Source: a virus
Lineage: Duplodnaviria > Heunggongvirae > Uroviricota > Caudoviricetes
Reading direction: 5' to 3' (one strand)
IMG/VR virus record: IMGVR_UViG_2724679538_000004
Location: 45,799-109,798 of that record
DNA length: 64,000 nucleotides
The notes under the pieces are model-generated. The model searched no databases, was not told the DNA's origin, and was given only the letters and a program-made list of their open reading frames with translations. Shown here one piece after another: positions 2,968 to 46,496 of the stretch (positions are counted from its first letter, which is position 1; each line of letters starts with the position of its first letter). The position numbers and the translations under genes are program-made.

Positions 2968-5283
2968 ATGATAAGCATCGTAAAACGTAACGGCCAAACA
3001 GAGCCGTTATCCGAAGAAAAATACAACCGCGTCGTAATGTATGGCGTAGAAGGTATTCGTGGCGTAAGCGCATCAGCTGTAGCAATGGGAGCTGCGGCCA
3101 GTATTTTTGATGGGATGACCACCAGCCAGTTGCATGAGGCTTTGGTTAAATCTGCTGCGGACCTAATCTCTCCAGAGACACCAAACTACTCACAAGTAGC
3201 CGCACGTCTGAACATTTTCAAAATCCGCAAGCATGCATTCGGTCAATACGACTATCCGAATTTCTATCAACACATTGTTAAAAATGTCAACAAAGGCGTT
3301 TATGACGCAGATCTACTGAAATACTACTCGGTCGAAGAAATAGAGGAGCTTGGCATATACATTAAGCCTAAGCGTGATGAGCTTTTTGGTTATGCAGCTA
3401 CTGTTCAGCTACATAGCAAATACCTTGTCCAGAATCGTGTGACTGGAGAAATCTACGAGGGGCCACAACATATTTATATGCTGGTGGGCATGTGTCTGTT
3501 CCAGAATTGGGAAGACGACTGCGCTGGCAAAACTCGTATGGAGATGGTCAAAGGCTTCTATGACATCACCAGTACGTTCAAATTGTCCTTGCCGACCCCA
3601 ATCATGGCAGGCGTTCGTACTCCTACTCGCCAGTTCTCCAGTTGTGTGCTGATTGAGTCTGGGGATAGTCTGAAAGGGATTAGTGCAGCTTCAGCCGCAA
3701 TTATCGACTACGTTTCACGTCGTGCTGGAATTGGTATTGGTTTTGGCCGCATACGTGCGCTGGGAAGTGAGATCCGCAATGGTGAAGCCACCCATACCGG
3801 AGTTCTTCCATTCCTGAAGCATTTCCAGACTGCTGTTAAATCTTGCTCGCAAGGTGGTGTTCGTGGTGGAGCAGCAACAGCGTTTTACCCGATCTGGCAT
3901 CTTGAAGTTGAAAGTCTGCTGGTGGTGAAAAACAACCGAGGTATCGAGGAAAACCGTGTTCGCCATCTTGATTACGGAGTAATGATCAATCGCCTCATGT
4001 ATCGCCGACTTGTTCGAGGCGAGAACATTACTCTGTTCAGTCCGCATGATGTGCCTGATATGTACGAAGCCTTCTTTACAGATCAGGATCTGTTTGAAAA
4101 GCTGTACCATAAATACGAAGCCGATGATTCAATCCGCAAGAAGTCAGTACCTGCCGTTGAGCTGTTTTCATCTCTGATGCAGGAACGAGCGTCCACTGGC
4201 CGCATTTATATTGCGAACGTCGACCATATTAATGAGCATGGTGCTTTTATTCCTGCTCTTGCACCTGTTCGTCAGTCAAACCTGTGCATGGAGATCACCC
4301 TACCCACTCGTCCACTGACATTTACCGACGATCCGAACGGTGAGATCGCGCTGTGCACTTTATCAGCTTTTAACCTAGGAGCCATCCGTTCACTGGAGTC
4401 TCTTAAAGAGGTTGCGTTCTATGCCGTGGCTGCACTGGATTCGCTACTGGATTATCAAGACTATCCGATGGATGCAGCGAAAGTGCCTGCCAAAGCTCGT
4501 CGTAGCCTGGGGATTGGTGTAACCAACTTTGCTTATTACCTGGCAAAGAATGGCGTTCGTTATTCTGATACCGCTGGCAATAAACTGGTGCATGAAACGT
4601 TTGAAGCTATCCAGTATTACCTTCTTGATGCCAGTTGCCGACTTGCGGAAGCAAAAGGTGAATGTGACTGGTTTGAGCAGACCAGGTACGCAATTGGCCA
4701 GTTGCCGATCGACCACTACCGTTCTTCATTAGACGAAAGTGACGAAACTAACTTTGAATTAAAGATGCCGTGGGAAGAACTGCGTGAACGAATTGCAAAA
4801 CACGGCCTTCGCAATTCCACGCTGACGGCACAAATGCCATGTGAGACTTCCAGCCAGATCACTAACTCCACCAACGGCATTGAACCGCCTCGTGGCCCGG
4901 TGTCAGTGAAATCTTCTAAGGACGGCATCGTCAAGATGGTCGTGCCTGAGTTTGAAAAATTGAAGGAACAGTATGAATACCTGTGGGATATGCCGGACAA
5001 CCGCGGCTATCTGACAAAGGTGGCGATCATCCAGAAGTTCTTCGACCAGGCTATTTCAGCCAATACCAACTATGACCCTTCTCGCTTTGAAGGCGATAAA
5101 GTTCCAATGATGACGCTACTGTCAGATTTGCTTCTTGCCTACAAGATGGGAGTTAAAACGCTTTACTACCACAACACCAGAGATGGTGCAGGAAAGCGTG
5201 ATGACGACGAACCGCAGAATCCACTGGCGCAAGCTGTAGCCGTCGAGCCAGAAGATGAGTGCGACGGAGCCTGCAAAATCTGA
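2968..5283 (+). CDS. nrdA: ribonucleoside-diphosphate reductase alpha subunit (class Ia)
   Basis: 771 aa; N-terminal ATP-cone-like region; catalytic SNLCMEI motif; overall resemblance to E. coli NrdA. Confidence 0.9.
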   Translation: MISIVKRNGQTEPLSEEKYNRVVMYGVEGIRGVSASAVAMGAAASIFDGMTTSQLHEALVKSAADLISPETPNYSQVAARLNIFKIRKHAFGQYDYPNFYQHIVKNVNKGVYDADLLKYYSVEEIEELGIYIKPKRDELFGYAATVQLHSKYLVQNRVTGEIYEGPQHIYMLVGMCLFQNWEDDCAGKTRMEMVKGFYDITSTFKLSLPTPIMAGVRTPTRQFSSCVLIESGDSLKGISAASAAIIDYVSRRAGIGIGFGRIRALGSEIRNGEATHTGVLPFLKHFQTAVKSCSQGGVRGGAATAFYPIWHLEVESLLVVKNNRGIEENRVRHLDYGVMINRLMYRRLVRGENITLFSPHDVPDMYEAFFTDQDLFEKLYHKYEADDSIRKKSVPAVELFSSLMQERASTGRIYIANVDHINEHGAFIPALAPVRQSNLCMEITLPTRPLTFTDDPNGEIALCTLSAFNLGAIRSLESLKEVAFYAVAALDSLLDYQDYPMDAAKVPAKARRSLGIGVTNFAYYLAKNGVRYSDTAGNKLVHETFEAIQYYLLDASCRLAEAKGECDWFEQTRYAIGQLPIDHYRSSLDESDETNFELKMPWEELRERIAKHGLRNSTLTAQMPCETSSQITNSTNGIEPPRGPVSVKSSKDGIVKMVVPEFEKLKEQYEYLWDMPDNRGYLTKVAIIQKFFDQAISANTNYDPSRFEGDKVPMMTLLSDLLLAYKMGVKTLYYHNTRDGAGKRDDDEPQNPLAQAVAVEPEDECDGACKI

Positions 5284-5287
5284 CATA

Positions 5288-5320
5288 TGGTGGGGGATAT
5301 CCCCACCTTCTCTTTGATTT
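5288..5320 (+). terminator. terminator-like hairpin
   Basis: GGTGGGGGATATCCCCACC hairpin followed by a T-rich stretch. Confidence 0.45.
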
Positions 5321-5344
5321 GTAAGCCTTGTTTAAACACATAAG

Positions 5345-5364
5345 ATAACAACTTGTTTAAACAC
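5345..5364 (+). promoter_or_regulatory. promoter/operator family motif (AACAACTTGTTTAA)
   Basis: Near-palindrome AAACAA-N-TTGTTT about 25 nt upstream of the nrdB start. Confidence 0.4.
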
Positions 5365-5388
5365 ACCAAAAAGCAAAAGGAAAAACAC

Positions 5389-6531
5389 ATGTCATATTCA
5401 ACGTTCCGTTTGGGTGCTAATGATGCAACCAAAGAGCCTATGTTCCTCGGACAATCTGTCAACGTGGCACGTTACGATCAGCAAAAGTACCGTGATTTTG
5501 AAAAGTTGATTGAACGTCAATTGTCTTTCTTCTGGCGGCCAGAAGAAGTTGATATTTCAAGCGATCGCATCGACTTCAATACGAAGCTGCGGGACCACGA
5601 ACGTCACATTTTCCTGAGTAATCTCCGTTATCAAACGTTACTCGATTCAGTTCAGGGACGTAGCCCAAATGCAACGCTGCTGCCGCTTATCTCTATCCCT
5701 GAACTGGAAACGTGGATTGAAACGTGGTCTTTCTCTGAGACTATCCATAGCCGCAGCTACACCCACATTATTCGTGGCATGGTGGATGACCCTAGCATTG
5801 TTTTTGACGGTATTGTTACGGATGAAGAAATCATCAACCGAGCGATCAGTATCTCTGCTGAATATGACAGGCTTTATGGGATGACCTGCGATCGCCAGTC
5901 GTTAGGTGAGAAGGAATTTGAGCGTCTGTACGTAAATGAATATGGCTGGGAGCCATACCCTTTGCAACGTCAGCTTTTCCGCACGTTGGTGTCTATTAAT
6001 GCGCTTGAGGCGATCCGTTTCTACGTAAGTTTTGCATGTACGTTTGCCTTTGGCGAACGGAAGTTGCTTGAGGGTAACACCAAAATTATGCGCTTTATTG
6101 CCCGTGATGAAGCTCTGCATTGCGAGGGAACAGAACGTATGATCCGCTTCATGCGTACAGGTCGCGAAGGTTTATTGTGGAAAGAGATTGCTGCTGATGA
6201 AGAAAATGTCATTTACGACACCATGAAATCAGTCGCCGAACAAGAAATGAACTGGGCAGACTATCTCTTCAAAGATGGCTCAATGATTGGTTTAAACGCA
6301 GAGATTCTCAAAAGCTACGTAAAGTACCGCACCAATCTGGCTATGAATCGTCTTGGCCTTAAGGCGTTATTCCCAGAAGTTACCAGTGATCCGCTGGTCT
6401 GGATGAATAAGTGGCTATTGACCGACACACTGCAAATCGCACCACAAGAGGCAGAGCAAAGCACATATCTGGTAGGTCAGATCGATTCTACCGTAGACAA
6501 AGCCTCACTGAGTCAGTTCGCGGACCTGTAA
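5389..6531 (+). CDS. nrdB: ribonucleoside-diphosphate reductase beta subunit
   Basis: Strong resemblance to E. coli NrdB over the whole length; ATG at 5389 with AAGGA RBS preferred over the upstream TTG at 5353. Confidence 0.9.
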
Positions 6532-6609
6532 GCCTATAAATTGCGTTATGTGGCCTGGTAACGCTGGGCCACAATGGAGCACAAGTTCTAATAAAGGAAA
6601 GAAAACGAT

Positions 6610-7485
6610 ATGAATTTTACCAAACTGAAAGACCACCTAAAGATTGCCACGGATCGTCTCGTTGGTTTCAAGGCTGAACCATATGAAATCAATGAAGGTC
6701 ACGTTATGGCGACGGAAGCTATTTACCAAATGGTCGATCAGTTTCATGAACTCTTTCAACACCCGCGTCGTGTGGTGCCAACACCGGAATTACTTCGTCT
6801 CCGTGCCAGATTGATTCATGAGGAAGCTGTAATAGAAGGCATCCCAGCCGCACAAAAAGGAGACATTGAGCAGCTGCTGGATGCAATGGCTGATTTTCTC
6901 TATGTAGGTGTAGGCACAATGGTCGCAGTTAAAGGTGGTATTTCTACAGGTATGACTTACTACACGCAGGAACAAAGCATTGATCGCTTTATTGAGACAT
7001 TCTTTGTGCCTCAGAATACTGTGTTCGATGACATGGCTATTCCATTCAAAGAAGCTCAGCAGGCGGCTGTGATGCTTGAAGAGTTGGCTGACAAACTTGA
7101 AAAGAAAACCATGAGAGATCCTGAACTGATTCAGGAGCTACGCCGTGTAATGAATAAAATTTACGTCGCGTGCATGATGACATATCGACTCGCTGATTTC
7201 TTGGGTGTCGATGTTGTTGAGCTGGTACGTGAGATTCATCGTTCCAACATGACTAAATTATGGCCTGCGGATATGGAAGAGCGCCAAAAGGCTGTAGAGA
7301 ACTGCAAATACGACAAACACGATCTAAGTTTTCGCCATGCGGACGGGACAGACATGATGATAGGCTTTCGTGTTTCAGATGGAAAAATACTCAAATCGCC
7401 AACATACAGTGACGTTGATCTTACTGCGTTTGTAGCGCAGGCGAAGTCTTCTGCAATATATGATGAAGTTAAAAAATTATTGTAG
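6610..7485 (+). CDS. all-alpha NTP pyrophosphohydrolase-like protein (MazG/HisE/dimeric-dUTPase superfamily), putative
   Basis: EExxE...D...D pattern (IHEEAVIEG...LLDAMADFLY) typical of the superfamily; sits in the nucleotide-metabolism cluster. Confidence 0.4.
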   Translation: MNFTKLKDHLKIATDRLVGFKAEPYEINEGHVMATEAIYQMVDQFHELFQHPRRVVPTPELLRLRARLIHEEAVIEGIPAAQKGDIEQLLDAMADFLYVGVGTMVAVKGGISTGMTYYTQEQSIDRFIETFFVPQNTVFDDMAIPFKEAQQAAVMLEELADKLEKKTMRDPELIQELRRVMNKIYVACMMTYRLADFLGVDVVELVREIHRSNMTKLWPADMEERQKAVENCKYDKHDLSFRHADGTDMMIGFRVSDGKILKSPTYSDVDLTAFVAQAKSSAIYDEVKKLL

Positions 7486-7629
7486 GTAGTTACTTATGTG
7501 TGTATATTAATTTTGTGTACTAACTACACCTGGTAAGAGAATCTTCGTATATTTTGGTGGCCATGTGCCACCATTTTTTTTGTCATCTGGTCTTGCCTGG
7601 TTTTCGCGTGTAAACTCTCACTTATGAAT

Positions 7630-7650
7630 AATAGGTATGTACTTATCTAT
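7630..7650. promoter_or_regulatory. copy of recurrent palindrome (AATAGGTATGTACTTATCTAT)
   Basis: Inverted repeat 18 nt upstream of the thyA-like start. Confidence 0.4.
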
Positions 7651-7667
7651 CTTTTTGTGGGGTTTAT

Positions 7668-8771
7668 GTGTCTCTTCTATTGAATGGTGAGCATACGAAT
7701 GGCCAGGTGGCTAATACATCGTATGCAAAAGTAATTGAAACGGTACTTAAATCAGGCGTGAAAGCAGGAGATCGGACTGGTACTGGCACTACGAGTGTTT
7801 CTTACGTTCCATCCTACTACTTACTGACTGGCGGCTCTGTTCCGTTGATTTCAGGGAAGGCTGTGAATTTAAAACCGCTTCTGGTTGAGCTGGAGTGGTA
7901 TCTCAAAGGAACAGGCAACATCCAGTTCCTGAAAGACAATGGCGTCAAAATTTGGGATGCCTGGGCTGATGAAAATGGCGATTTAGGACCGGTTTATGGC
8001 AAGCAATGGCGTCGGTGGGAAGACACCCGCATCGTTAGCAATAGTGAGTATTTAAAAAAAATCGACACGTTGCGTGAGCGCGGATACAAGGTCGAGGGGT
8101 ATCTGGGCATAAGTGAAGATCGCGTTGTGTTGTCCCGTGAAATCGACCAGCTACAGCGTATCGTCGACACACTGCGTACCAATCCTACCGATCGTCGTAT
8201 TCTGCTTAATGCGTGGAATGTTGGCGAGTTGGAAGATATGAAGTTGCCACCTTGTCACTTTGTCTTTTCTCTGTGGAGTCGTGAGCTGGACTTTAAGACC
8301 CGGCTGACGATGGCCACCGACATAGGCATCCAACACAATCGCTACGGCCACGAATCCATTTACACCCAGATGCTGTGTCTTCTGGAACGTGATGGAGGTA
8401 TTACAGAGAACATGCTGGACGAGCTGGGCATCCCGAAACGTATTCTGAACTCCTGTCTTGTGCAGCGTAGCGTCGATACTTTCGTTGGTATGCCTTTCAA
8501 TATCGCTGGTTATGGCATTCTCACTCACTTCCTCGCAAAGATCACCGGCCATATGGCTGGCGCATTCGTACATTTTGGTTTTGACGTTCATTTATACGAC
8601 AACCATATGGAAGGCGTTGAGGAACTGCTGAATCGCGAACCGCCAAAAGAGTCCGACCCTGTTGTCATCTTCCCGCATGAGTGGGCTGAGTTAGATGACT
8701 TCAAGTGGGAAGGTGTTCAGATTCTTGGCTATTCACCACTTCCGTGGATCAAGGTTCCAGTGGCGGTGTGA
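7668..8771 (+). CDS. thyA: thymidylate synthase family protein (ThyA homolog with two in-frame insertions)
   Basis: DRTGTGT, WADENGDLGPVYGKQWR, catalytic PCH, QRSxD and PFNIA motifs align with E. coli ThyA; GTG start assumed. Confidence 0.8.
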   Translation: MSLLLNGEHTNGQVANTSYAKVIETVLKSGVKAGDRTGTGTTSVSYVPSYYLLTGGSVPLISGKAVNLKPLLVELEWYLKGTGNIQFLKDNGVKIWDAWADENGDLGPVYGKQWRRWEDTRIVSNSEYLKKIDTLRERGYKVEGYLGISEDRVVLSREIDQLQRIVDTLRTNPTDRRILLNAWNVGELEDMKLPPCHFVFSLWSRELDFKTRLTMATDIGIQHNRYGHESIYTQMLCLLERDGGITENMLDELGIPKRILNSCLVQRSVDTFVGMPFNIAGYGILTHFLAKITGHMAGAFVHFGFDVHLYDNHMEGVEELLNREPPKESDPVVIFPHEWAELDDFKWEGVQILGYSPLPWIKVPVAV

Positions 8772-8772
8772 T

Positions 8773-9186
8773 ATGGCCAGAGGGATGTATGTACTGTGTG
8801 AAATCGATGATGTGCTGGCGAACGTCAGCCATCGTAAGTCGGTGCCTGAATCTGATGCAGGGGCTTTTATTGCAGGTGATGAACTCATCTTTCCAACCAG
8901 CCGCATGTTGCGTGGTTTTGCTCGCTCTGGTGCTGAGATCGTGCTTATCAGCCGTCGCTCCGAGTCTCTTGAAGGCCAGACAAAACGCTGGTTGAAAGAC
9001 TTTGGTGTTGATTACGACTGGCTTCACCTTGTTCCTGATGGTGTCAGTTTTGAAAAGCACATCAAACGCACGCTTGCTGAGCACAAGGGTGAGTTGCTGA
9101 TAGCTGCGCTGATCCACGATCCGCGATTGCGATCGACTTTAGCCAATTATCACCAACGCCCCATTATTTATGAGGTAAGCCAATGA
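8773..9186 (+). CDS. HAD-family 5'(3')-deoxyribonucleotidase-like protein (putative)
   Basis: N-terminal MYVLCEIDDVLA resembles the D-x-D-x-V/L HAD motif of NT5C-type nucleotidases; ATG at 8773 chosen because the upstream part of the tracked ORF overlaps thyA. Confidence 0.4.
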   Translation: MARGMYVLCEIDDVLANVSHRKSVPESDAGAFIAGDELIFPTSRMLRGFARSGAEIVLISRRSESLEGQTKRWLKDFGVDYDWLHLVPDGVSFEKHIKRTLAEHKGELLIAALIHDPRLRSTLANYHQRPIIYEVSQ

Positions 9187-9659
9187 GGATGATTGCAGCT
9201 GTAGGACGCAACTATGAAATTGGCATAGGAAACGTACTCCCCTGGCGTTGCCCAACAGACATGAAATTGTTCAAGCGGCTAACTCAAAACGCAAGTGTAG
9301 TGATGGGGCGTAAGACGATGGAAAGTCTGAAACGCCCACTGCCTGAGCGCCACAACCTTGTATTAACGCGCTCACAAGGTCATATGCCGAATGGGTTTTA
9401 CTCTGCTTGCGTGGAAGACGTGCTAAAGCTTCCAGAGCCTATCTGGGTAATTGGAGGCGGGCAGATTTATTCAACTCTTATGCCTTACGTAGAAGAAATA
9501 TGGCTTTCACATATAGGTGTTGATGTGCCAAACGCAGATGCATTCTTCCCTGTAGAGCTGATGCGCACATTGGGATTTGCTCCAGTGGAGACGGCATATA
9601 CGCAACGACAGAGTGAGGAAGAACCTGGATTTTTGCAGATTGTATACAGAAGGGCGTAA
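9183..9659 (+). CDS. folA: dihydrofolate reductase
   Basis: MRMIAAVGRNYEIG...LPW...VMGRKTMESL...LVLTR matches the DHFR N-terminal signature; ATGA overlap with upstream gene. Confidence 0.8.
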   Translation: MRMIAAVGRNYEIGIGNVLPWRCPTDMKLFKRLTQNASVVMGRKTMESLKRPLPERHNLVLTRSQGHMPNGFYSACVEDVLKLPEPIWVIGGGQIYSTLMPYVEEIWLSHIGVDVPNADAFFPVELMRTLGFAPVETAYTQRQSEEEPGFLQIVYRRA

Positions 9660-10303
9660 TGGATTACCGAATTGGGATCACTGGTGTACAGGGCAGTGGT
9701 AAAACAACCCTGGCAAAATACATCGACAAACACTTTGGCATTCCGTATGTGGATGCCGGGGTTGGCAGACTTATGAGTAGCTTAGGTGTGAAGGTTGGCG
9801 CAAAAATGCCGCTTTACGAGCGTCTTCAAATTCAGATGGAGATTGCAAAGCACATCGAAGTGATTACCCGTGGGGTTGAAGGCTTTGTGATTGATCGAAC
9901 TCCTGCTGATGTTATGGCTTACACGCTAGATCTTGTTGGGCAAACCAATGAAGAGAGGTGTATCGAGTTAGCAATCGACATTGAAAGGTTTTGCCACGAT
10001 ACGGCAATTTCAAATTTCAATGCCATAGCTGGTTTACGCCCGGGAGTCACATTGACCGACGACGACTTCAAACGTGAACAGAGAGGTTCTCTTGATCGTC
10101 TCTATGTTGCTCGTATAGACGCTCTTATGTGTGGGGAATTAACCAAAATCCACCTGCATCCGCAGAGGGGAGATCTGCAAACATTTATTATTTCAGAGCG
10201 GTATCGAACAGTCGAAGCAAGAGCCAGATCCGTGTTCAGGATGATTGATAACGCCGTTGAAAAAATTGAAAAAAGATTCAGTGGCCGCGTGACCGTTCAT
10301 TGA
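9659..10303 (+). CDS. P-loop nucleotide kinase-like protein (possible dNMP kinase)
   Basis: Walker A GVQGSGKTT near the N-terminus; TAATG coupling to DHFR; context among nucleotide-metabolism genes. Confidence 0.45.
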   Translation: MDYRIGITGVQGSGKTTLAKYIDKHFGIPYVDAGVGRLMSSLGVKVGAKMPLYERLQIQMEIAKHIEVITRGVEGFVIDRTPADVMAYTLDLVGQTNEERCIELAIDIERFCHDTAISNFNAIAGLRPGVTLTDDDFKREQRGSLDRLYVARIDALMCGELTKIHLHPQRGDLQTFIISERYRTVEARARSVFRMIDNAVEKIEKRFSGRVTVH

Positions 10304-10364
10304 AAATTGTTCGCCTCTCCAATATTGCAACAATAGAACTCTCAAAATGGATTAAGGATAAAAA

Positions 10365-10784
10365 ATGTTTACTGAAACGCTGCTGGAAGATGAGCTTGAT
10401 CGGAAAACGACAGAGGCTCTTATTCGCGTGGCAGACGAACATTCCAGGTCGCTTCTAAGTGATCGAGAGGCTCGTTTGGTAATTCGCGCCATATTTGAAA
10501 CGGTGCAAGGACTTGTTGGAGCGCAAGTTGGTGAAGCCGTTAATTTTGCAATGAATCAATTCAGTGGCGAAGCCAAGAAGCCACTGTTCCCTATGCATCT
10601 GAAGCTCGCGAATGGAACGGTGTTGTATGTTTCTGTTTGTCTTGATAATAACCAAATAAACGTACTCAATGTGACATCTGGCGAATGGCGCGATCCGGTT
10701 GTTTGCGAAAGTGGTGAAGAAGCATTGAAGAAAGCAGCTCAGTTTGTGCGTAGCGCATTGCTGAAAGGCGCGAAGAAGTTGTAA
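10365..10784 (+). CDS. hypothetical protein
   Basis: 139-aa ORF with RBS. Confidence 0.4.
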   Translation: MFTETLLEDELDRKTTEALIRVADEHSRSLLSDREARLVIRAIFETVQGLVGAQVGEAVNFAMNQFSGEAKKPLFPMHLKLANGTVLYVSVCLDNNQINVLNVTSGEWRDPVVCESGEEALKKAAQFVRSALLKGAKKL

Positions 10785-12640: not shown

Positions 12641-13234
12641 ATGATAGCGGCTGAGAAAATTAAAAAACGAGAGCGTGACCCTTCTCTTAGAGATCTATGG
12701 CGCACACCTCAATGGTTGTTTAACGCTATCCAGAAATACTTAGGTGTTCAATTCGATGTGGACGTTGCCTGCAACAAAGACAACGCTCTTCTTGCAAATT
12801 ACATAGGCGTGGAGCGTGATGCTTTGAAAAGCAACTGGGGAGAACCGGGCACTATAGCATTCCTAAACCCGCCCTACTCGAAAATTTCCCCGTGGATCGA
12901 GGCCGCAATACGCGAACAAGCACGAGGTGTCACTACAGTTATGCTTATACCACAATCCCTTGATACAAAATGGTATGAGCGGGCCACTGAGCACGCAAAC
13001 GAAACGGTTATTCTGTCTGGAGGTCGTGTGGCTTTCGTGGAACCAGACGTTAATTTGGGATTTGTGGAGGTAAACATTAACCCTGGTGGAAGTATGCTTC
13101 TGATTTTTAGAGGCTTTTGTCAGGGAGCTGGACACACGATTAGAAAAATTCCTCTGGCGGTGTTGAAACAGCTGGGGGGTTATGATCCTGCCAATGTTTC
13201 CAGAAAGAAAAGAACATACAAGAAGGCAGCTTAA
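12641..13234 (+). CDS. phage Dam-family DNA N6-adenine methyltransferase
   Basis: DLWRTPQWLF and NPPYS motifs typical of phage Dam-type methyltransferases. Confidence 0.7.
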   Translation: MIAAEKIKKRERDPSLRDLWRTPQWLFNAIQKYLGVQFDVDVACNKDNALLANYIGVERDALKSNWGEPGTIAFLNPPYSKISPWIEAAIREQARGVTTVMLIPQSLDTKWYERATEHANETVILSGGRVAFVEPDVNLGFVEVNINPGGSMLLIFRGFCQGAGHTIRKIPLAVLKQLGGYDPANVSRKKRTYKKAA

Positions 13235-18635: not shown

Positions 18636-18654
18636 AGAAAATAATTTGTTTACT
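18636..18654 (+). promoter_or_regulatory. promoter/operator family motif (AGAAAATAATTTGTTTACT)
   Basis: Upstream of the methyltransferase-fusion gene. Confidence 0.35.
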
Positions 18655-18663
18655 GGTTTGATT

Positions 18664-20349
18664 ATGACAACTGCCCTTTCAATCACTGACACCTTCAAAA
18701 CAAGTTCAGAAGTTGACTATCGAAAAGAGCTTAACCTCATCCATAAAATCGTTGCAGAGTGCGAACGCGAGATCGCTTTCATGCGCCAGGTACATGATTA
18801 CGTATATGGCGATGAACGCCATAAGATGATTAATCGTTTGTTACGACTTAACTACCGTCCAGATGATGAGAACGCTCGTTTTAATAACATTGTACTGGAC
18901 AAGGCTGATCTCGAATGGGTGAAGCAGAACATCTGGGCTGAATACTGGAAAAAGGTCACTGATATGACTAACGTTCTGCTGATCATGCCAGCTTCCCGTC
19001 GCGAGGAGTGGCGTGAGCAATTTATCGAGGGCAAGCAGGAAATCACCAAAACTGACAGAACTGGCTACCAGATGAAGGTTAAGGAGTTCGTTGGAGTACC
19101 CGAGTTCAAGGTAGAAACTGTCATACCAACGATGATTAGCCTTCTAAATGACAGACATAAATATCTTTCTGAGCGCGTGTACGGTTTGTTTAAGGTGCTG
19201 AGTCCTGCACATAAGACCAACAAAACGAACGGCTTTAGCGAACGTTTGATCATTGCCAATTGCATTACTGATTTTTGGCGGGATAGCGTAAGTGTTAATT
19301 ATAAGCTTGAGGACTACATTGACGATCTGCGGGTATTGCTGCATTTCTTCGCGCACAAAGAGTTCATTACTATTAATCGCAGTTCGCAGATGCTATCCCT
19401 GGCATACAGAGCTAATGGCTGCAACACCGGTGAGTGGGTGAGCGTCGACGGCAATTTAATGCGTGTGAAGATGTTCAAGAACGGTAACGTTCACTTCGAA
19501 ATCCACCCTGACGTGGCCTGGAAGTTGAATGAAGTTCTGGCGCACAGTATGCCATCAGCCATACCTGCACCATGTCGTACCGCGCCAAAAACGCGAGCGC
19601 CAAAAGAGTTTGGCACTATTCATAAGATTATTTCAGACCCTGTACGAATCGCTTTGCGAGACGGACGACGTACCCGTAATCAAGAAGCCTGGTACTTTTC
19701 TGATTCATGTTTGCAGAAAAATCAGGTGGAAGAGTTGGAGCGTACATTAAGTTTTATTGGAGGAGTACGGGAGAACAGTCAGTGGACGTTCCCCTATGAT
19801 GCGACACAAACAATAAACAGTATCGTTGATACGGGGCTAGTTCCAGAAGCGAAATCACACCAGTTCTATCCAACACCGCATGTAATCGCTGAGTATGTGG
19901 CGAGAGCGATCGATCATAAGCCTGGAGAAACTCTTTTGGAACCGGAAGCCGGGCGTGGTGATTTGTTGTCCTGTATTGACGCTAACCGGGAAGATATTAC
20001 CTGCATAGAATTAGCTCCCCTTTTTGCGGATATCCTCCGTTCAAAGGGGTACGCGAATACGATTTGTTGCGACTTCTTGAAATGGTCAGAGAGTAATGCA
20101 GGCTATCAATTCGACAAAATCGTTATGAATCCCCCCTACTCTTTTAATCGCTATAAAGAGCACACGCTATCTGCTCTTGGGCATCTGAAAGTTGGAGGCA
20201 GGCTGGTGGCCGTGTTGCCGGGAAACTCGCCTTCGCTTAATTGGATGACTTTGGATAATTACGTTTATGCAAAGGGGAAATCTTTCACTGGTGAGTTCGC
20301 TGATACGGGGGTTACTGTCAGCGTGTATGTCTTCAAACGCGTAAAATAA
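18664..20349 (+). CDS. DNA methyltransferase with a ~400-aa N-terminal domain of unknown function
   Basis: C-terminal ~160 aa carries FYPTP, LEPEAGRGDL (SAM-binding) and NPPY motifs; ATG 18664. Confidence 0.65.
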   Translation: MTTALSITDTFKTSSEVDYRKELNLIHKIVAECEREIAFMRQVHDYVYGDERHKMINRLLRLNYRPDDENARFNNIVLDKADLEWVKQNIWAEYWKKVTDMTNVLLIMPASRREEWREQFIEGKQEITKTDRTGYQMKVKEFVGVPEFKVETVIPTMISLLNDRHKYLSERVYGLFKVLSPAHKTNKTNGFSERLIIANCITDFWRDSVSVNYKLEDYIDDLRVLLHFFAHKEFITINRSSQMLSLAYRANGCNTGEWVSVDGNLMRVKMFKNGNVHFEIHPDVAWKLNEVLAHSMPSAIPAPCRTAPKTRAPKEFGTIHKIISDPVRIALRDGRRTRNQEAWYFSDSCLQKNQVEELERTLSFIGGVRENSQWTFPYDATQTINSIVDTGLVPEAKSHQFYPTPHVIAEYVARAIDHKPGETLLEPEAGRGDLLSCIDANREDITCIELAPLFADILRSKGYANTICCDFLKWSESNAGYQFDKIVMNPPYSFNRYKEHTLSALGHLKVGGRLVAVLPGNSPSLNWMTLDNYVYAKGKSFTGEFADTGVTVSVYVFKRVK

Positions 20350-28972: not shown

Positions 28973-29100
28973 CGGTTGCAACTTATTGATAATGGCGGTC
29001 ACAATTTGATTCTTTTCTATAAGAATCCGTTGATCGCCACTACTCCCCTTCCATACCTGCAACCACATCCTTAAATATCAATTAGTTATAGTTGTTTATA

Positions 29101-29124
29101 CCAATAAGAAAACAACTAAATAAC
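29101..29124 (+). promoter_or_regulatory. promoter/operator family motif (variant)
   Basis: CCAATAAGAAAACAACTAAATAAC; no convincing gene downstream. Confidence 0.3.
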
Positions 29125-29313
29125 AGATCAACGAAATGTCAATGCTTTCGCCCGATTTGGTCTATAAAATTGACGTTTTCACACATCACTTCTTATACCC
29201 GCAATCCTACGCAGCAGACAGCGCCACAGCGTCCAATTTTCACCACAGATGACCCAACAACTACCAATAAAAACACACGCTCAAAATCGCTCCCGTTGCG
29301 TTACACAACCATA

Positions 29314-29356
29314 TAAACAACTTGTTTTCAGGCATAACAAAACAACTAAATAACAC
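29314..29356 (+). promoter_or_regulatory. promoter/operator family motifs (TAAACAACTTGTTTTCAGG and CATAACAAAACAACTAAATAACAC)
   Basis: Immediately upstream of the A/C-rich noncoding tract. Confidence 0.35.
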
Positions 29357-29900
29357 ATATGCCATTCCCCAAAACAACCAACCTCTTTATGGCAGGCTAC
29401 CGAAAAGACCCACCTCTTCTTCCCAGGCTACCGGACAACCAACCTAACTTTCACAGGCAATTCGAAACCTCCATACGCGCGATACCCACGACACGCCATT
29501 CCCCAAATAGCGAAGAACCACCGAAACCCCAACGAAGCTTGTAACCGCAAGGATTTCCTCAATCCCAAAAGACACGAAACAGAACATTCGAGGGAAACGC
29601 CATTACCCAATACACGAATAACTACAAAAGCCTTTCACGCACTCCATACAAGCAACTCAAACACAATAACGAAAGGAATCGCCCACCTGCCATTACTCCA
29701 TACACGGAGAAGAACAATCACCAAAACGTCGAGAACAACCCAGAGAAGAACCACCGCAAAACGAACGAAACCATATAAACCGACAGAGAGAACTACACAC
29801 CCAATTCACCAACAGAAATAGTCGCCGTATAGAACGTTCAGGGAGGAGTGAGTATTAACGCCTATAGAGAGCTTGAGACAGATAAAACACGAAGAAAACA
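29357..29900 (+). other. A/C-rich, G-poor noncoding tract with dispersed GCCATT(A/C)C(C/T)C...ACACG repeats (candidate untranslated transcript)
   Basis: No credible ORF on either strand; composition skew visible by eye; bounded by promoter-like motifs upstream and a hairpin/T-run downstream. Confidence 0.35.
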
Positions 29901-29946
29901 CAACATGTATAACGGAGAAGCCAGGTATGTATAAGTGGGGAGTGGA

Positions 29947-29968
29947 GGAGGGGTGTCGCCTCCTTTTT
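29947..29968 (+). terminator. terminator-like hairpin plus T-run
   Basis: GGAGG-GGTGTCG-CCTCC then TTTTT. Confidence 0.45.
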
Positions 29969-30032
29969 CGTATTTATTCAACTCCTGATTTTATCCCCCC
30001 GTAAAACCCCTACGGTCAGCCTTCGGTCCATA

Positions 30033-30173
30033 CAGGGAAAAGGTTGCATCCCGCTACAGAAACGGCTGGGTTGCCTTCGGGGAACGGCTGGAGGTTTTCA
30101 GGGAAACGGTCGAGTTGCCTGTGTGGGTTTCGGGAAAAGGCTCGATGCCGGTTCAGGAACGGTGGCGTACCGG
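30033..30173. repeat. about six tandem imperfect ~22-bp repeats of (C)AGGGAAA(A/C)GG type (iteron-like)
   Basis: CAGGGAAAAGG, CGGGGAACGG, CAGGGAAACGG, CGGGAAAAGG, CAGGAACGG read in series. Confidence 0.55.
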
Positions 30174-30475
30174 TATAGCGAGAGGGAGAGTTGCGGCTAC
30201 CCACCTGTAATGTGCGGGAAGAAGGGAGACTCTCACGTATAGGCGAACCTACTTCCCGCTGGATTCCCTCTGAATGCCCAGCTACAGCGTAATTGTGCCA
30301 GACAGTCCGCGGGTCACAATCGATTTCAGTAGGTTTTCGGGGAGAGGATTATTCTGCCCACCAGCTCCCTGCGGCCAGTAAATCAGAATAATGTAAAAAG
30401 TGCCCACGGTACTGAACCTGAAAAGTCACTACTAAAACTGCATTTACCGGAATAAAACTCTTTTTCACCTATGTG

Positions 30476-44921: not shown

Positions 44922-46496
44922 ATGGAATTGGATGACAAACAAATTAAAGATTTAGTGGCAAGACGCCACCCTGAATACGAAAAGAAAAAGACACATTGGG
45001 ACTTCCTCGCCAGCACTTACGCTGGTGGGCGTGGTTGGTTCGCTGACAACATCTTTCGTTATTTCAAAGAAGGCGATCAGGAGTTTAAGGAACGTCTTGA
45101 GCGTGCTTACCGCTTCAATCACACCCGTGAAGTAGTAAACCTCATTAATAAATACCTGTTTAAAGAAGATATCCATCGAAACACAGAGGAAGCGCCTGAG
45201 CAGATCCGTAACTTCTGGAAAAGAGCGACACGCCAGAATGCATCTATCGACTCATTTATGGCTGCTATCGATTTGCAATCGTCAATCTATGGCCGTATTT
45301 GGGTTGTTGTAGATAGCACAATGAATGGTGATGTGGAGTCAGTCGCTGATGAGAAGAGGAAGAATGCACGTGCCTATGCCTACTGGATTTCCCCTCAACA
45401 AATGCTGGATGTGGCATGGGATGATGACGGCAATATGTTATGGGCGTTAATTGTGGAAGTTGCTCGTGATGATGCAGATCCATTTACTTCAACCGGTCAG
45501 GAATACCAACGTTATCGTCTGTGGACACAAAACGAGTGGTATCTGTTCCGTGAAGAAGTTAAGAAGAGCGCTGGCGGAGCCGGTCGCCGTCAGGCAAAAG
45601 TTATTTTAGAGGATAGCGGTGAACATAATCTCGGCGTAGTTCCCGTGTTTCCTGTTGATTGTATTGGAGAAAGCGAATCACCGTATTTCAGTCCATCGTT
45701 AATCGATGACATCGCATATCTTGATCGTGCTGTAGCCAACTATTTGTCTAACCTTGATGCCATTATTCAGGATCAAACTTTCAGTCAGTTGGCTATCCCC
45801 GTGCAGTCGATGATGCCTGGTGATGAAAGCCATAGCAAGGTGCTGGAAATGGGCACAAAACGAGTTTTCACCTACGATTCTGAAGGTGGAAACCAGCCGT
45901 TTTATCTTTCTCCAGATCCAAAACAAGCTCAGATGATCATCACTACGATTAAGACGGTGATTAATGAAATCTACCATTCAGTTGGTGTTGCTGGCGAACG
46001 AACGAAGCAGGATAACGCACAGGGAATCGATAACTCTTCTGGTGCCGCTAAGATGTATGACTTCCAGCGAGTTAACAGTCTGCTGGTCACAAAAGCAGAG
46101 CGTCTTGAAAGGGCAGAGCGACAAATTATGCAACTTGTCGCTAAATGGATGGGAGTCGAGCTGGATGAAGACCATTCTCTAATTGCTTACCCTGAGAGTT
46201 TTGATATTCGCGGTCTTACTGACGAATTTGCTGTTGCTGAGAAGCTGTCAATGCTTCAAGCGCCTGATTCTGTACGTCGTCGTCAGATGGAAATGCTCAT
46301 CGAGAAGATTTTCCCGAATATCACTGAGGCGATGAAAAAGGAATTTGATAAAGATCTCTTGAATTTTCCGCCAAAAAATGATCTAAATACCCTTGAAAAT
46401 AAGTCAGTACTTACTTATCATCGAGATACAGCTCAAGAAACCGAGCAAGATCAACCCCGAGGGAGTGGGGACTCATCTACTCAAGAAACCGAGTGA
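44922..46496 (+). CDS. portal protein (putative)
   Basis: 524 aa; position between terminase and scaffold. Confidence 0.6.
   Translation: MELDDKQIKDLVARRHPEYEKKKTHWDFLASTYAGGRGWFADNIFRYFKEGDQEFKERLERAYRFNHTREVVNLINKYLFKEDIHRNTEEAPEQIRNFWKRATRQNASIDSFMAAIDLQSSIYGRIWVVVDSTMNGDVESVADEKRKNARAYAYWISPQQMLDVAWDDDGNMLWALIVEVARDDADPFTSTGQEYQRYRLWTQNEWYLFREEVKKSAGGAGRRQAKVILEDSGEHNLGVVPVFPVDCIGESESPYFSPSLIDDIAYLDRAVANYLSNLDAIIQDQTFSQLAIPVQSMMPGDESHSKVLEMGTKRVFTYDSEGGNQPFYLSPDPKQAQMIITTIKTVINEIYHSVGVAGERTKQDNAQGIDNSSGAAKMYDFQRVNSLLVTKAERLERAERQIMQLVAKWMGVELDEDHSLIAYPESFDIRGLTDEFAVAEKLSMLQAPDSVRRRQMEMLIEKIFPNITEAMKKEFDKDLLNFPPKNDLNTLENKSVLTYHRDTAQETEQDQPRGSGDSSTQETE

Follow-up and report, generated by a model that had tools for sequence, protein, structure and literature searches.

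A long ThyA with two insertions in an SSU5-like phage-plasmid is predicted to be a conventional thymidylate synthase

We analysed a gene of the thymidylate synthase (TS) family in a 64,000-nucleotide stretch of viral DNA (positions 45,799 to 109,798 of the IMG/VR record IMGVR_UViG_2724679538_000004), which we call the window and which belongs by its sequence to an SSU5-like phage-plasmid. An earlier reading made from the letters alone (hereafter the sequence-only reading) had described this gene, thyA, as a ThyA homolog with two large in-frame insertions that could be either a conventional TS or a hydroxymethylase of deoxyuridine monophosphate (dUMP). Residue conservation makes it very probable that thyA encodes a conventional folate-dependent TS (ThyA, EC 2.1.1.45) that makes deoxythymidine monophosphate (dTMP). 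The first of its two insertions is a known element of an ordinary bacterial TS, and the second is a widespread mini-domain for which we found no earlier description and which has so far turned up only in phage contexts. The features of the gene are as follows.

7668..8771, plus strand: thyA, classical ThyA-type thymidylate synthase, 367 amino acids, GTG start, TGA stop at 8769-8771
8022..8132, plus strand: insertion 1, residues 119-155, replacing 3 E. coli residues (site 102-106), net +34
8253..8258, plus strand: codons of catalytic Cys196 and His197 (E. coli C146/H147), invariant alignment columns
8280..8447, plus strand: insertion 2, residues 205-260, replacing the beta-hairpin turn at E. 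coli 154-159 (6 residues), net about +50
8499..8501, plus strand: codon of Asn278 (E. coli N177 by alignment), the dUMP-specificity determinant, which is Asp in the hydroxymethylase of deoxycytidine monophosphate (dCMP) of phage T4
8757..8768, plus strand: C-terminal PVAV tail (E. coli PVAI by alignment), the lid that closes over folate in TS, absent from SPO1 gp29 and T4 gp42

Evidence for a conventional thymidylate synthase

The product of thyA matches PF00303 (Thymidylat_synt) with E=4e-79 and 266 bits against a threshold of 24.3 (Pfam), passes the TIGR03284 TS equivalog (222.6 bits, cut-off 108.35) and, even at E<=10, matches only thymidylate-synthase PHROGs. Each core motif named in the sequence-only reading was located, confirming a ThyA-family enzyme: DRTGTGT at residues 35-41, GKQWR at 111-115, PCH at 195-197, QRSVD at 266-270, and PFNIA at 276-280. 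HMMER aligned the protein with E. coli ThyA from the Protein Data Bank (PDB) in three collinear stretches, in which residues 18-118, 156-204, and 261-367 correspond to E. coli 3-102, 106-153, and 160-264. The dUMP-binding and catalytic set is complete (R36, R176, R177, C196, H197, R267, S268, D270, N278, H308, and Y310), as is the folate and hydride-transfer set (E74, W96, W99, Y110, L193, and F277, with the C-terminus KVPVAV). The retained Asn, from which dUMP specificity had been read earlier, is indeed the equivalent of E. coli N177.

An alignment against TS enzymes and dUMP and dCMP hydroxymethylases, a check that the sequence-only reading had itself proposed, speaks against a hydroxymethylase. 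Six references were used: the TS of E. coli (partly confirmed by PDB alignments), human, Lactobacillus casei (checked against 1LCA), and Burkholderia thailandensis (taken from a database alignment), the T4 dCMP hydroxymethylase (checked), and SPO1 gp29, annotated as a dUMP hydroxymethylase (29100-30251 of its locus). The window ThyA is TS-type at 26 of the 27 positions compared, which cover catalysis, dUMP, folate, and the C-terminus, the exception being the variable position 51. In E. coli numbering, it equals E. coli TS at R21, K48, E58, W80, D81, W83, Y94, R126, R127, L143, C146, and H147, at Q165, R166, S167, D169, F176, N177, H207, and Y209, and in the V-A-V C-terminus. SPO1 gp29 and T4 gp42, by contrast, differ from TS at W83, L143, H147, Q165, and F176, and neither has the PVAV tail. 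Position 177 is Asp in T4 gp42 and Asn in the window ThyA, which argues against a dCMP hydroxymethylase. Over the core, the window ThyA shares 44% identity with E. coli TS and 23% with each hydroxymethylase.

The other possibility left by the sequence-only reading was that the enzyme converts dUMP to its 5-hydroxymethyl form (5-hmdUMP) as the first step towards 5-hydroxymethyluracil (hmU) or hypermodified thymidine, aided by the MazG-like, HAD-like, and kinase genes nearby. A ThyA fold with Asn at the specificity position would suit such an activity, and the genes nearby broadly resemble in type those that assist the hmU pathway: dTTPase, dTMPase, and dNMP kinase/5-HMUDK (PMC8989533). The window ThyA nevertheless keeps the C-terminal tail and every residue specific to TS for folate binding and hydride transfer, features that are altered or missing in SPO1 gp29 and T4 gp42; the identities favour E. 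coli TS, and the TS equivalog cut-off is passed. Previous work indicates that hmU and hypermodification pathways require a dUMP hydroxymethylase, a 5-hydroxymethyldeoxyuridine (5-hmdU) DNA kinase, aGPT-Pplase, and tailoring enzymes (PMC8989533). No 5-hmdU DNA kinase, aGPT-Pplase, pyridoxal phosphate (PLP), radical S-adenosylmethionine (radical-SAM), glycosyltransferase, or tailoring gene was found by Pfam in the 13 open reading frames (ORFs) scanned between window positions 25 and 21106 (the two insertion fragments were scanned separately); the scan returned adenine methyltransferases (Dam-type and N6), RNase H, and SbcC-like proteins. The P-loop protein encoded downstream gave no tblastn match at E<=1e-3 in the hypermodified-thymidine phages ViI, M6, PhiW-14, and SP10, and its homologues elsewhere stand beside TS and dihydrofolate reductase (DHFR) genes; we rejected it as a candidate 5-hmdU DNA kinase on these grounds. 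The HAD-like neighbour, for its part, lacks a conserved nucleophile motif.

A DHFR gene in the same translationally coupled operon points the same way. To our knowledge, TS is the sole folate enzyme that oxidises its cofactor to dihydrofolate, and hydroxymethylases do not oxidise folate. Since TS alone yields dihydrofolate, a coupled DHFR fits a TS and would not be needed by a hydroxymethylase. Co-occurrence of TS and DHFR has been described across phages (PMC7824862). Taken with the residues, the tail, the family models, and the unmatched P-loop protein, this makes the hydroxymethylase that had been suggested highly improbable.

Beyond the likeness of its MazG-like, HAD-like, and P-loop kinase neighbours to hmU-pathway helpers, several points weigh against assignment as a conventional TS. 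TS activity is inferred from sequence, the analysis covered 64 kb of an element of about 105 kb (about 40 kb lie outside the window), and we found no assay or complementation in the literature for the window ThyA, its close relatives, or the SSU5/pHCM2 enzyme. Three narrower NCBIfam equivalogs were missed: NF002497 (266.3 against 327), NF002499 (239.5 against 405), and NF010393 (140.8 against 576), which we attribute to the insertions splitting the alignment into pieces. The window ThyA is thus not a member of the short, 264-residue gammaproteobacterial-type ThyA class represented by NF002497 and NF002499. What we propose below on the role of the insertions draws on a monomer model and on the human TS literature.

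Given the conservation of every catalytic residue, Cys196 would attack C6 of dUMP, and a methylene group and a hydride from 5,10-methylene-tetrahydrofolate would be transferred to give dTMP and dihydrofolate. The latter would be recycled by the DHFR encoded two genes downstream, a function known for the SSU5 orthologue, and the product of the kinase-like gene of the operon probably phosphorylates dTMP. Together with the ribonucleotide reductase NrdAB, these genes may raise the supply of deoxythymidine triphosphate (dTTP) during lytic replication.

Structure and distribution of the two insertions

The two large in-frame insertions had been estimated at about 35 and 45 residues, close to the +34 and about +50 that we measured. 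In a MAFFT count over 120 homologues, site 1 holds 44 residues against 10, and site 2 holds 61 against 10. Both insertions are confidently modelled (pLDDT 94 in a monomer model), leave the catalytic residues untouched, and form surface mini-domains in the model.

Insertion 1 is modelled by AlphaFold2 (AF2) as three beta-strands and two short helices. It falls in the segment E. coli 100-110, which has been named the 'interface loop' (PMC4661567), and human TS has eight additional residues in the same loop. The sequence-only reading was therefore right to call this a known variable site and wrong to place it in the small domain: the L. casei small-domain insertion site (E. coli 83-91) is unexpanded in the window ThyA, with 7 residues against 7. 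A homologous insertion of about 36 residues exists in B. thailandensis TS (PDB 3V8H), where the BLASTP alignment crosses it with single-residue gaps only, and the NF010393 model of the Burkholderia-type ThyA class spans residues 18-204 unbroken. On these two grounds insertion 1 is a known element of an ordinary bacterial TS. The sequence-only reading had counted insertions shared with ordinary TS enzymes as evidence against its proposal; we found such sharing for insertion 1 only.

Insertion 2 begins two residues past W203, the equivalent of human Y202, and is modelled by AF2 as three helices (residues 209-225, 231-242, and 247-253). The 64-residue segment modelled alone reaches a pLDDT of 95. 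Homologues of the insertion occur at the same site in many ThyA proteins of 315-378 residues and share the anchors S/T-R-E-L-x4-R ... L-D-x3-I-P-R/K-R-x-L, in which Arg212 and Pro256 are invariant. The anchors and invariant residues of the insertions persist among sequences only 15-30% identical. A search of 1.84 billion proteins with a profile of the segment (E<=1e-3) identified at least 92 cluster representatives with insertion 2. All 66 representatives of at least 300 residues carry +32 to +72 residues at site 2, and almost all of these keep E58, Y94, and C146. Asn177 is likewise kept, apart from two representatives that have Asp and from products that end short of this position. The two with Asp, P0162 and P0191, may act on dCMP rather than dUMP.

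The contexts that we examined for insertion 2 were all phages or SSU5-like elements. These comprised Seoulvirus SPFM2, two jumbo-phage-like metagenome contigs, Pseudomonas phage 201phi2-1 with its BFVD relatives (TM 0.84-0.86), and an SSU5-like module in Photobacterium ganghwense. Insertion 2 is found in free combination with other insertions and can occur without insertion 1; the opposite rule, suggested by the first 120 homologues, was rejected once insertion 2 was found with a small-domain insertion and without insertion 1. The sequence-only reading had called the second insertion unusual, and we found no counterpart of it in solved TS structures and no structural or Pfam relative. Each insertion searched alone against PDB and Pfam returned only TS flanks or sub-threshold noise, and a published description of these insertions was not found.

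About 21 of the 92 representatives (P0123-P0137, P0163-P0167, and others) end right after ...LSCQLYQR, often followed by K-x-x-C-A-F/L, which suggests that an intron or intein may interrupt those genes immediately ahead of the Ser167 codon. In P0130 (700 amino acids), the junction ...SNIVNHN|CHTLFQFY resembles an intein C-terminus directly before the catalytic Cys.

Selection, origin, and possible role of the insertions

Both insertions are under purifying selection. The ratio of nonsynonymous to synonymous substitution rates (dN/dS) between the window and SSU5 is 0.036 in the core, 0.205 in insertion 1, and 0.067 in insertion 2. Between the window and Cyrano it is 0.03 in the core and 0.033 in insertion 1 (dS is saturated in insertion 2). 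In a crude neighbour-joining (NJ) tree of the core only, insertion-bearing forms are polyphyletic, scattered among insertion-free ones. The cores of SPFM2 ThyA (4025-5062 of its locus) and P0043 are 74-78% identical to E. coli ThyA, against 44% for the window core. These scattered positions and unequal identities hint at exchange of insertions as cassettes or at gene conversion of the phage copies by host thyA, neither of which an NJ tree of this kind can prove.

A common feature of the two insertions may be where they leave the enzyme core. In human TS, Y202 sits on the perimeter of the interface between the two monomers, where it stacks on F59' and faces the partner K47-T55 loop, near R175 (PMC9831607). 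The K47-T55 loop corresponds to the R21 loop of E. coli TS. Since site 1 is the interface loop and site 2 follows the human-Y202 equivalent W203, both insertions would leave the fold along the rim of the obligate dimer interface. We tentatively hypothesize that their role is to brace or decorate this edge of the homodimer, which is our leading guess, held with considerable reserve.

The main rival to this hypothesis accepts a normal TS and gives the insertions a role as docking surfaces to DHFR, NrdAB, and the kinase-like protein in a complex that synthesises deoxynucleoside triphosphates (dNTPs). Insertion 2 is phage-associated in every context examined (SSU5-like elements, SPFM2, the jumbo-phage-like contigs, and 201phi2-1), folds autonomously in the model, carries an invariant Arg and Pro, and is under purifying selection. 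Moreover, the possible partner genes are translationally coupled, and synteny of the entire module extends from Enterobacterales to Photobacterium. In phage T4, the surface inserts of TS were reportedly once proposed to make contacts in the dNTP synthetase complex. We nevertheless consider docking unlikely: the neighbourhoods of insertion 2 are very different from one another (loci L003, L004, and L005 have no adjacent DHFR), and insertion 1 also occurs in the TS of free-living Burkholderia. A more speculative reading, which we regard as rather improbable, is that insertion 2 is a phage-borne, exchangeable mini-domain cassette that gives phage TS a property absent from host TS. It would draw on the three helices that fold autonomously in the model, the invariant Arg and Pro, the lack of any structural relative, the restriction so far to phage contexts, and the occurrence of the insertion in TS cores ranging from 44 to 78% identical to E. 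coli ThyA. If it is true, the position of insertion 2 by the partner's phosphate-binding loop could enable docking in a dNTP factory, altered communication between subunits, or escape from host control.

Mobile elements such as inteins, introns, and homing endonucleases target phage thyA genes, and the insertions might in principle be functionless scars of one of them. The frequent splitting of thyA just after ...LYQR among insertion-2 relatives, the one relative whose ...VNHN|CH junction at the catalytic Cys looks like that of an intein, and the scatter of insertion-bearing forms on the core-only tree would all accord with such an origin. Against it, both insertions are modelled as compact, high-confidence folds, their dN/dS values lie between 0.03 and 0.2, and their anchor motifs and invariant residues are conserved at 15-30% identity. 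The lengths of 37 and 56 residues are far below that of any intein, the insertion sites differ from the split point of the relatives, and insertion 1 is ordered in the crystal structure 3V8H. We rejected intein or intron relics on size, fold confidence, and dN/dS, and give a scar origin hardly any weight.

Host element and gene neighbourhood

The genes around thyA, from window positions 2968 to 10303, are listed below.

2968..6531, plus strand: nrdA (2968-5283) and nrdB (about 5389-6531), class Ia ribonucleotide reductase, from translations and the annotation of relatives
6610..7485, plus strand: MazG/PRA-PH-like nucleoside triphosphate (NTP) pyrophosphohydrolase, PF01503 at E=6e-9, phrog_671
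7555..7583, plus strand: terminator-like hairpin (7555-7573) followed by T8, between the MazG-like gene and thyA, a consensus match only
8773..9186, plus strand: HAD/PNKP-phosphatase-like gene, 137 amino acids, starting 1 nucleotide past the thyA stop, weak PF25109 match at E=0.0016 (below cut-off), phrog_5387
9183..9659, plus strand: DHFR gene, start overlapping the upstream stop (ATGA), PF00186 at E=3e-35
9659..10303, plus strand: P-loop protein resembling nucleoside monophosphate (NMP) kinases, 214 amino acids, start overlapping the DHFR stop, AAA_28/AAA_17, phrog_2107 'thymidylate kinase' at E=4.6e-12

Over window positions 6500-10500, DNA identity is 78-82% with Salmonella phage SSU5 and the Escherichia phages Cyrano and PhiR41_1 (about 82% with SSU5, about 78% with the E. 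coli elements). The gene order is identical to that of these relatives: nrdA, nrdB, MazG-like, thyA, HAD-like, DHFR, P-loop protein, and RNase T-like exonuclease. On this similarity and shared order, we assign the window by its sequence to an SSU5-like phage-plasmid, and the order of large ORFs in the remaining window is consistent with phage structural genes (from the ORF list only). Among plasmids of Klebsiella, Escherichia, Enterobacter, Salmonella, and Citrobacter, 690 records match the region; nearly all are non-mobilisable, and thyA is annotated as thymidylate synthase in all of them. The window ThyA is the orthologue of SSU5 gp081 (AFL47008.1), with 93.2% amino-acid identity; by comparison, its operon partners, the HAD-like, DHFR, and P-loop proteins, are 81-83% identical to their SSU5 counterparts. 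The Cyrano orthologue CYRAN_72 (OV696614.1, 21148-22251 of its locus) is labelled 'ThyX Thymidylate synthase' but is of the PF00303 ThyA type, a mis-annotation in the public record.

Because a terminator-like hairpin lies upstream, thyA probably starts a new transcription unit. The stop and start codons that follow abut or overlap (TGAtATG between thyA and the HAD-like gene, ATGA between the HAD-like and DHFR genes, and TAATG between the DHFR and P-loop genes), so these four genes are probably expressed as one unit. The window DHFR is 81.6% identical to SSU5 AFL47010.1 (dfrA51), which confers trimethoprim resistance when cloned (PMC12217456), and an unlisted trimethoprim-resistance determinant may thus sit on this element at 9183-9659. 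At the position of the HAD nucleophile motif, the protein encoded at 8773-9186 reads CEIDDV and its SSU5 counterpart CEIEGV; DxDxT is not conserved, and a nucleotidase function appears doubtful. PDB matches to the P-loop protein are confined to the P-loop itself, and its homologues adjoining TS/DHFR in Rhizobium phage RHEph10 and Pseudomonas phage ZY21 are annotated as putative thymidylate kinase. We propose that the product of 9659..10303 may be a dTMP/dNMP kinase. The pairing of TS with such a kinase looks conserved, as the P-loop gene recurs by TS/DHFR in these unrelated phages.

Elsewhere in the window, we identified a Dam-family adenine methyltransferase (12641-13234) and a 567-residue DUF4942/N6-methylase-like protein (18646-20349), adenine methylation being the only DNA-modification function in the scanned part. 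A syntenic SSU5-like module also exists in P. ganghwense CP071326.1 (802763-819824), a 2-Mb Vibrionaceae replicon, in the order SbcD/SbcC, NrdA, NrdB, MazG-like, ThyA, HAD-like, DHFR, AAA_28, RNase T, N6 methyltransferase, and RNase H. Its long ThyA (8001-9062 of the locus) has both insertions. The SSU5-like module therefore extends beyond Enterobacterales and, in P. ganghwense, appears to lie inside a large replicon.

Implications and comparison with known systems

SSU5-like phage-plasmids are very common in clinical Enterobacterales. Their long ThyA would best be interpreted as making dTMP alongside a DHFR whose SSU5 orthologue confers trimethoprim resistance, and not as a sign of hypermodified DNA. 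If insertion 2 alters the behaviour of the dimer or its contacts with other enzymes, it would offer a small, clean model of how a phage customises a conserved housekeeping enzyme, and its effect might account for the presence of a TS-DHFR pair on these elements.

The closest known systems are SSU5 gp081 and its orthologues in Enterobacterales phage-plasmids, which have the same 367 amino acids, both insertions, and the order nrdA-nrdB-MazG-thyA-HAD-DHFR-P-loop, and differ from the window only by sequence divergence. Next come the long ThyA proteins of jumbo phages (SPFM2/Seoulvirus, Cronobacter CR5, Erwinia pEa_SNUABM_42, and Pseudomonas 201phi2-1). They carry both insertions at the same sites with the same anchors and have BFVD TM-scores of 0.84-0.86 to the window ThyA at an overall identity of 38-41%. 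The middle of their insertion 2 varies in length and sequence, some, at 457-471 amino acids, have further insertions, and the core of SPFM2 ThyA is closer to E. coli ThyA than that of the window ThyA (74% against 44% identity).

E. coli ThyA (PDB 2TSC, 1AOB) has the same fold, and its catalytic, dUMP, folate, and C-terminal residues match those of the window ThyA, with a core identity of 44%. At 264 amino acids, it lacks the 15-residue N-terminal extension, insertion 1, and insertion 2. B. thailandensis ThyA (3V8H, NF010393 class, 323 amino acids) shares insertion 1 only, at a core identity of 32%; it lacks insertion 2 and has further insertions of its own in the small domain and near the C-terminus. 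The window ThyA is thus Burkholderia-type at the insertion 1 site, yet is not an NF010393 member (140.8 against 576). L. casei TS, with a 50-residue small-domain insertion (E. coli 83-91), provides a precedent for a large surface insertion in an active TS, though at another site than insertion 1. Human TS, another such precedent, has two eukaryotic insertions, the second of which (+8) is in the same interface loop as insertion 1, and neither L. casei nor human TS has anything at site 2. SPO1 gp29 and T4 gp42 (PDB 1B5E/6L18) share with the window ThyA the common superfamily fold, the catalytic Cys, and E58, Y94, R166, S167, D169, H207, and Y209.

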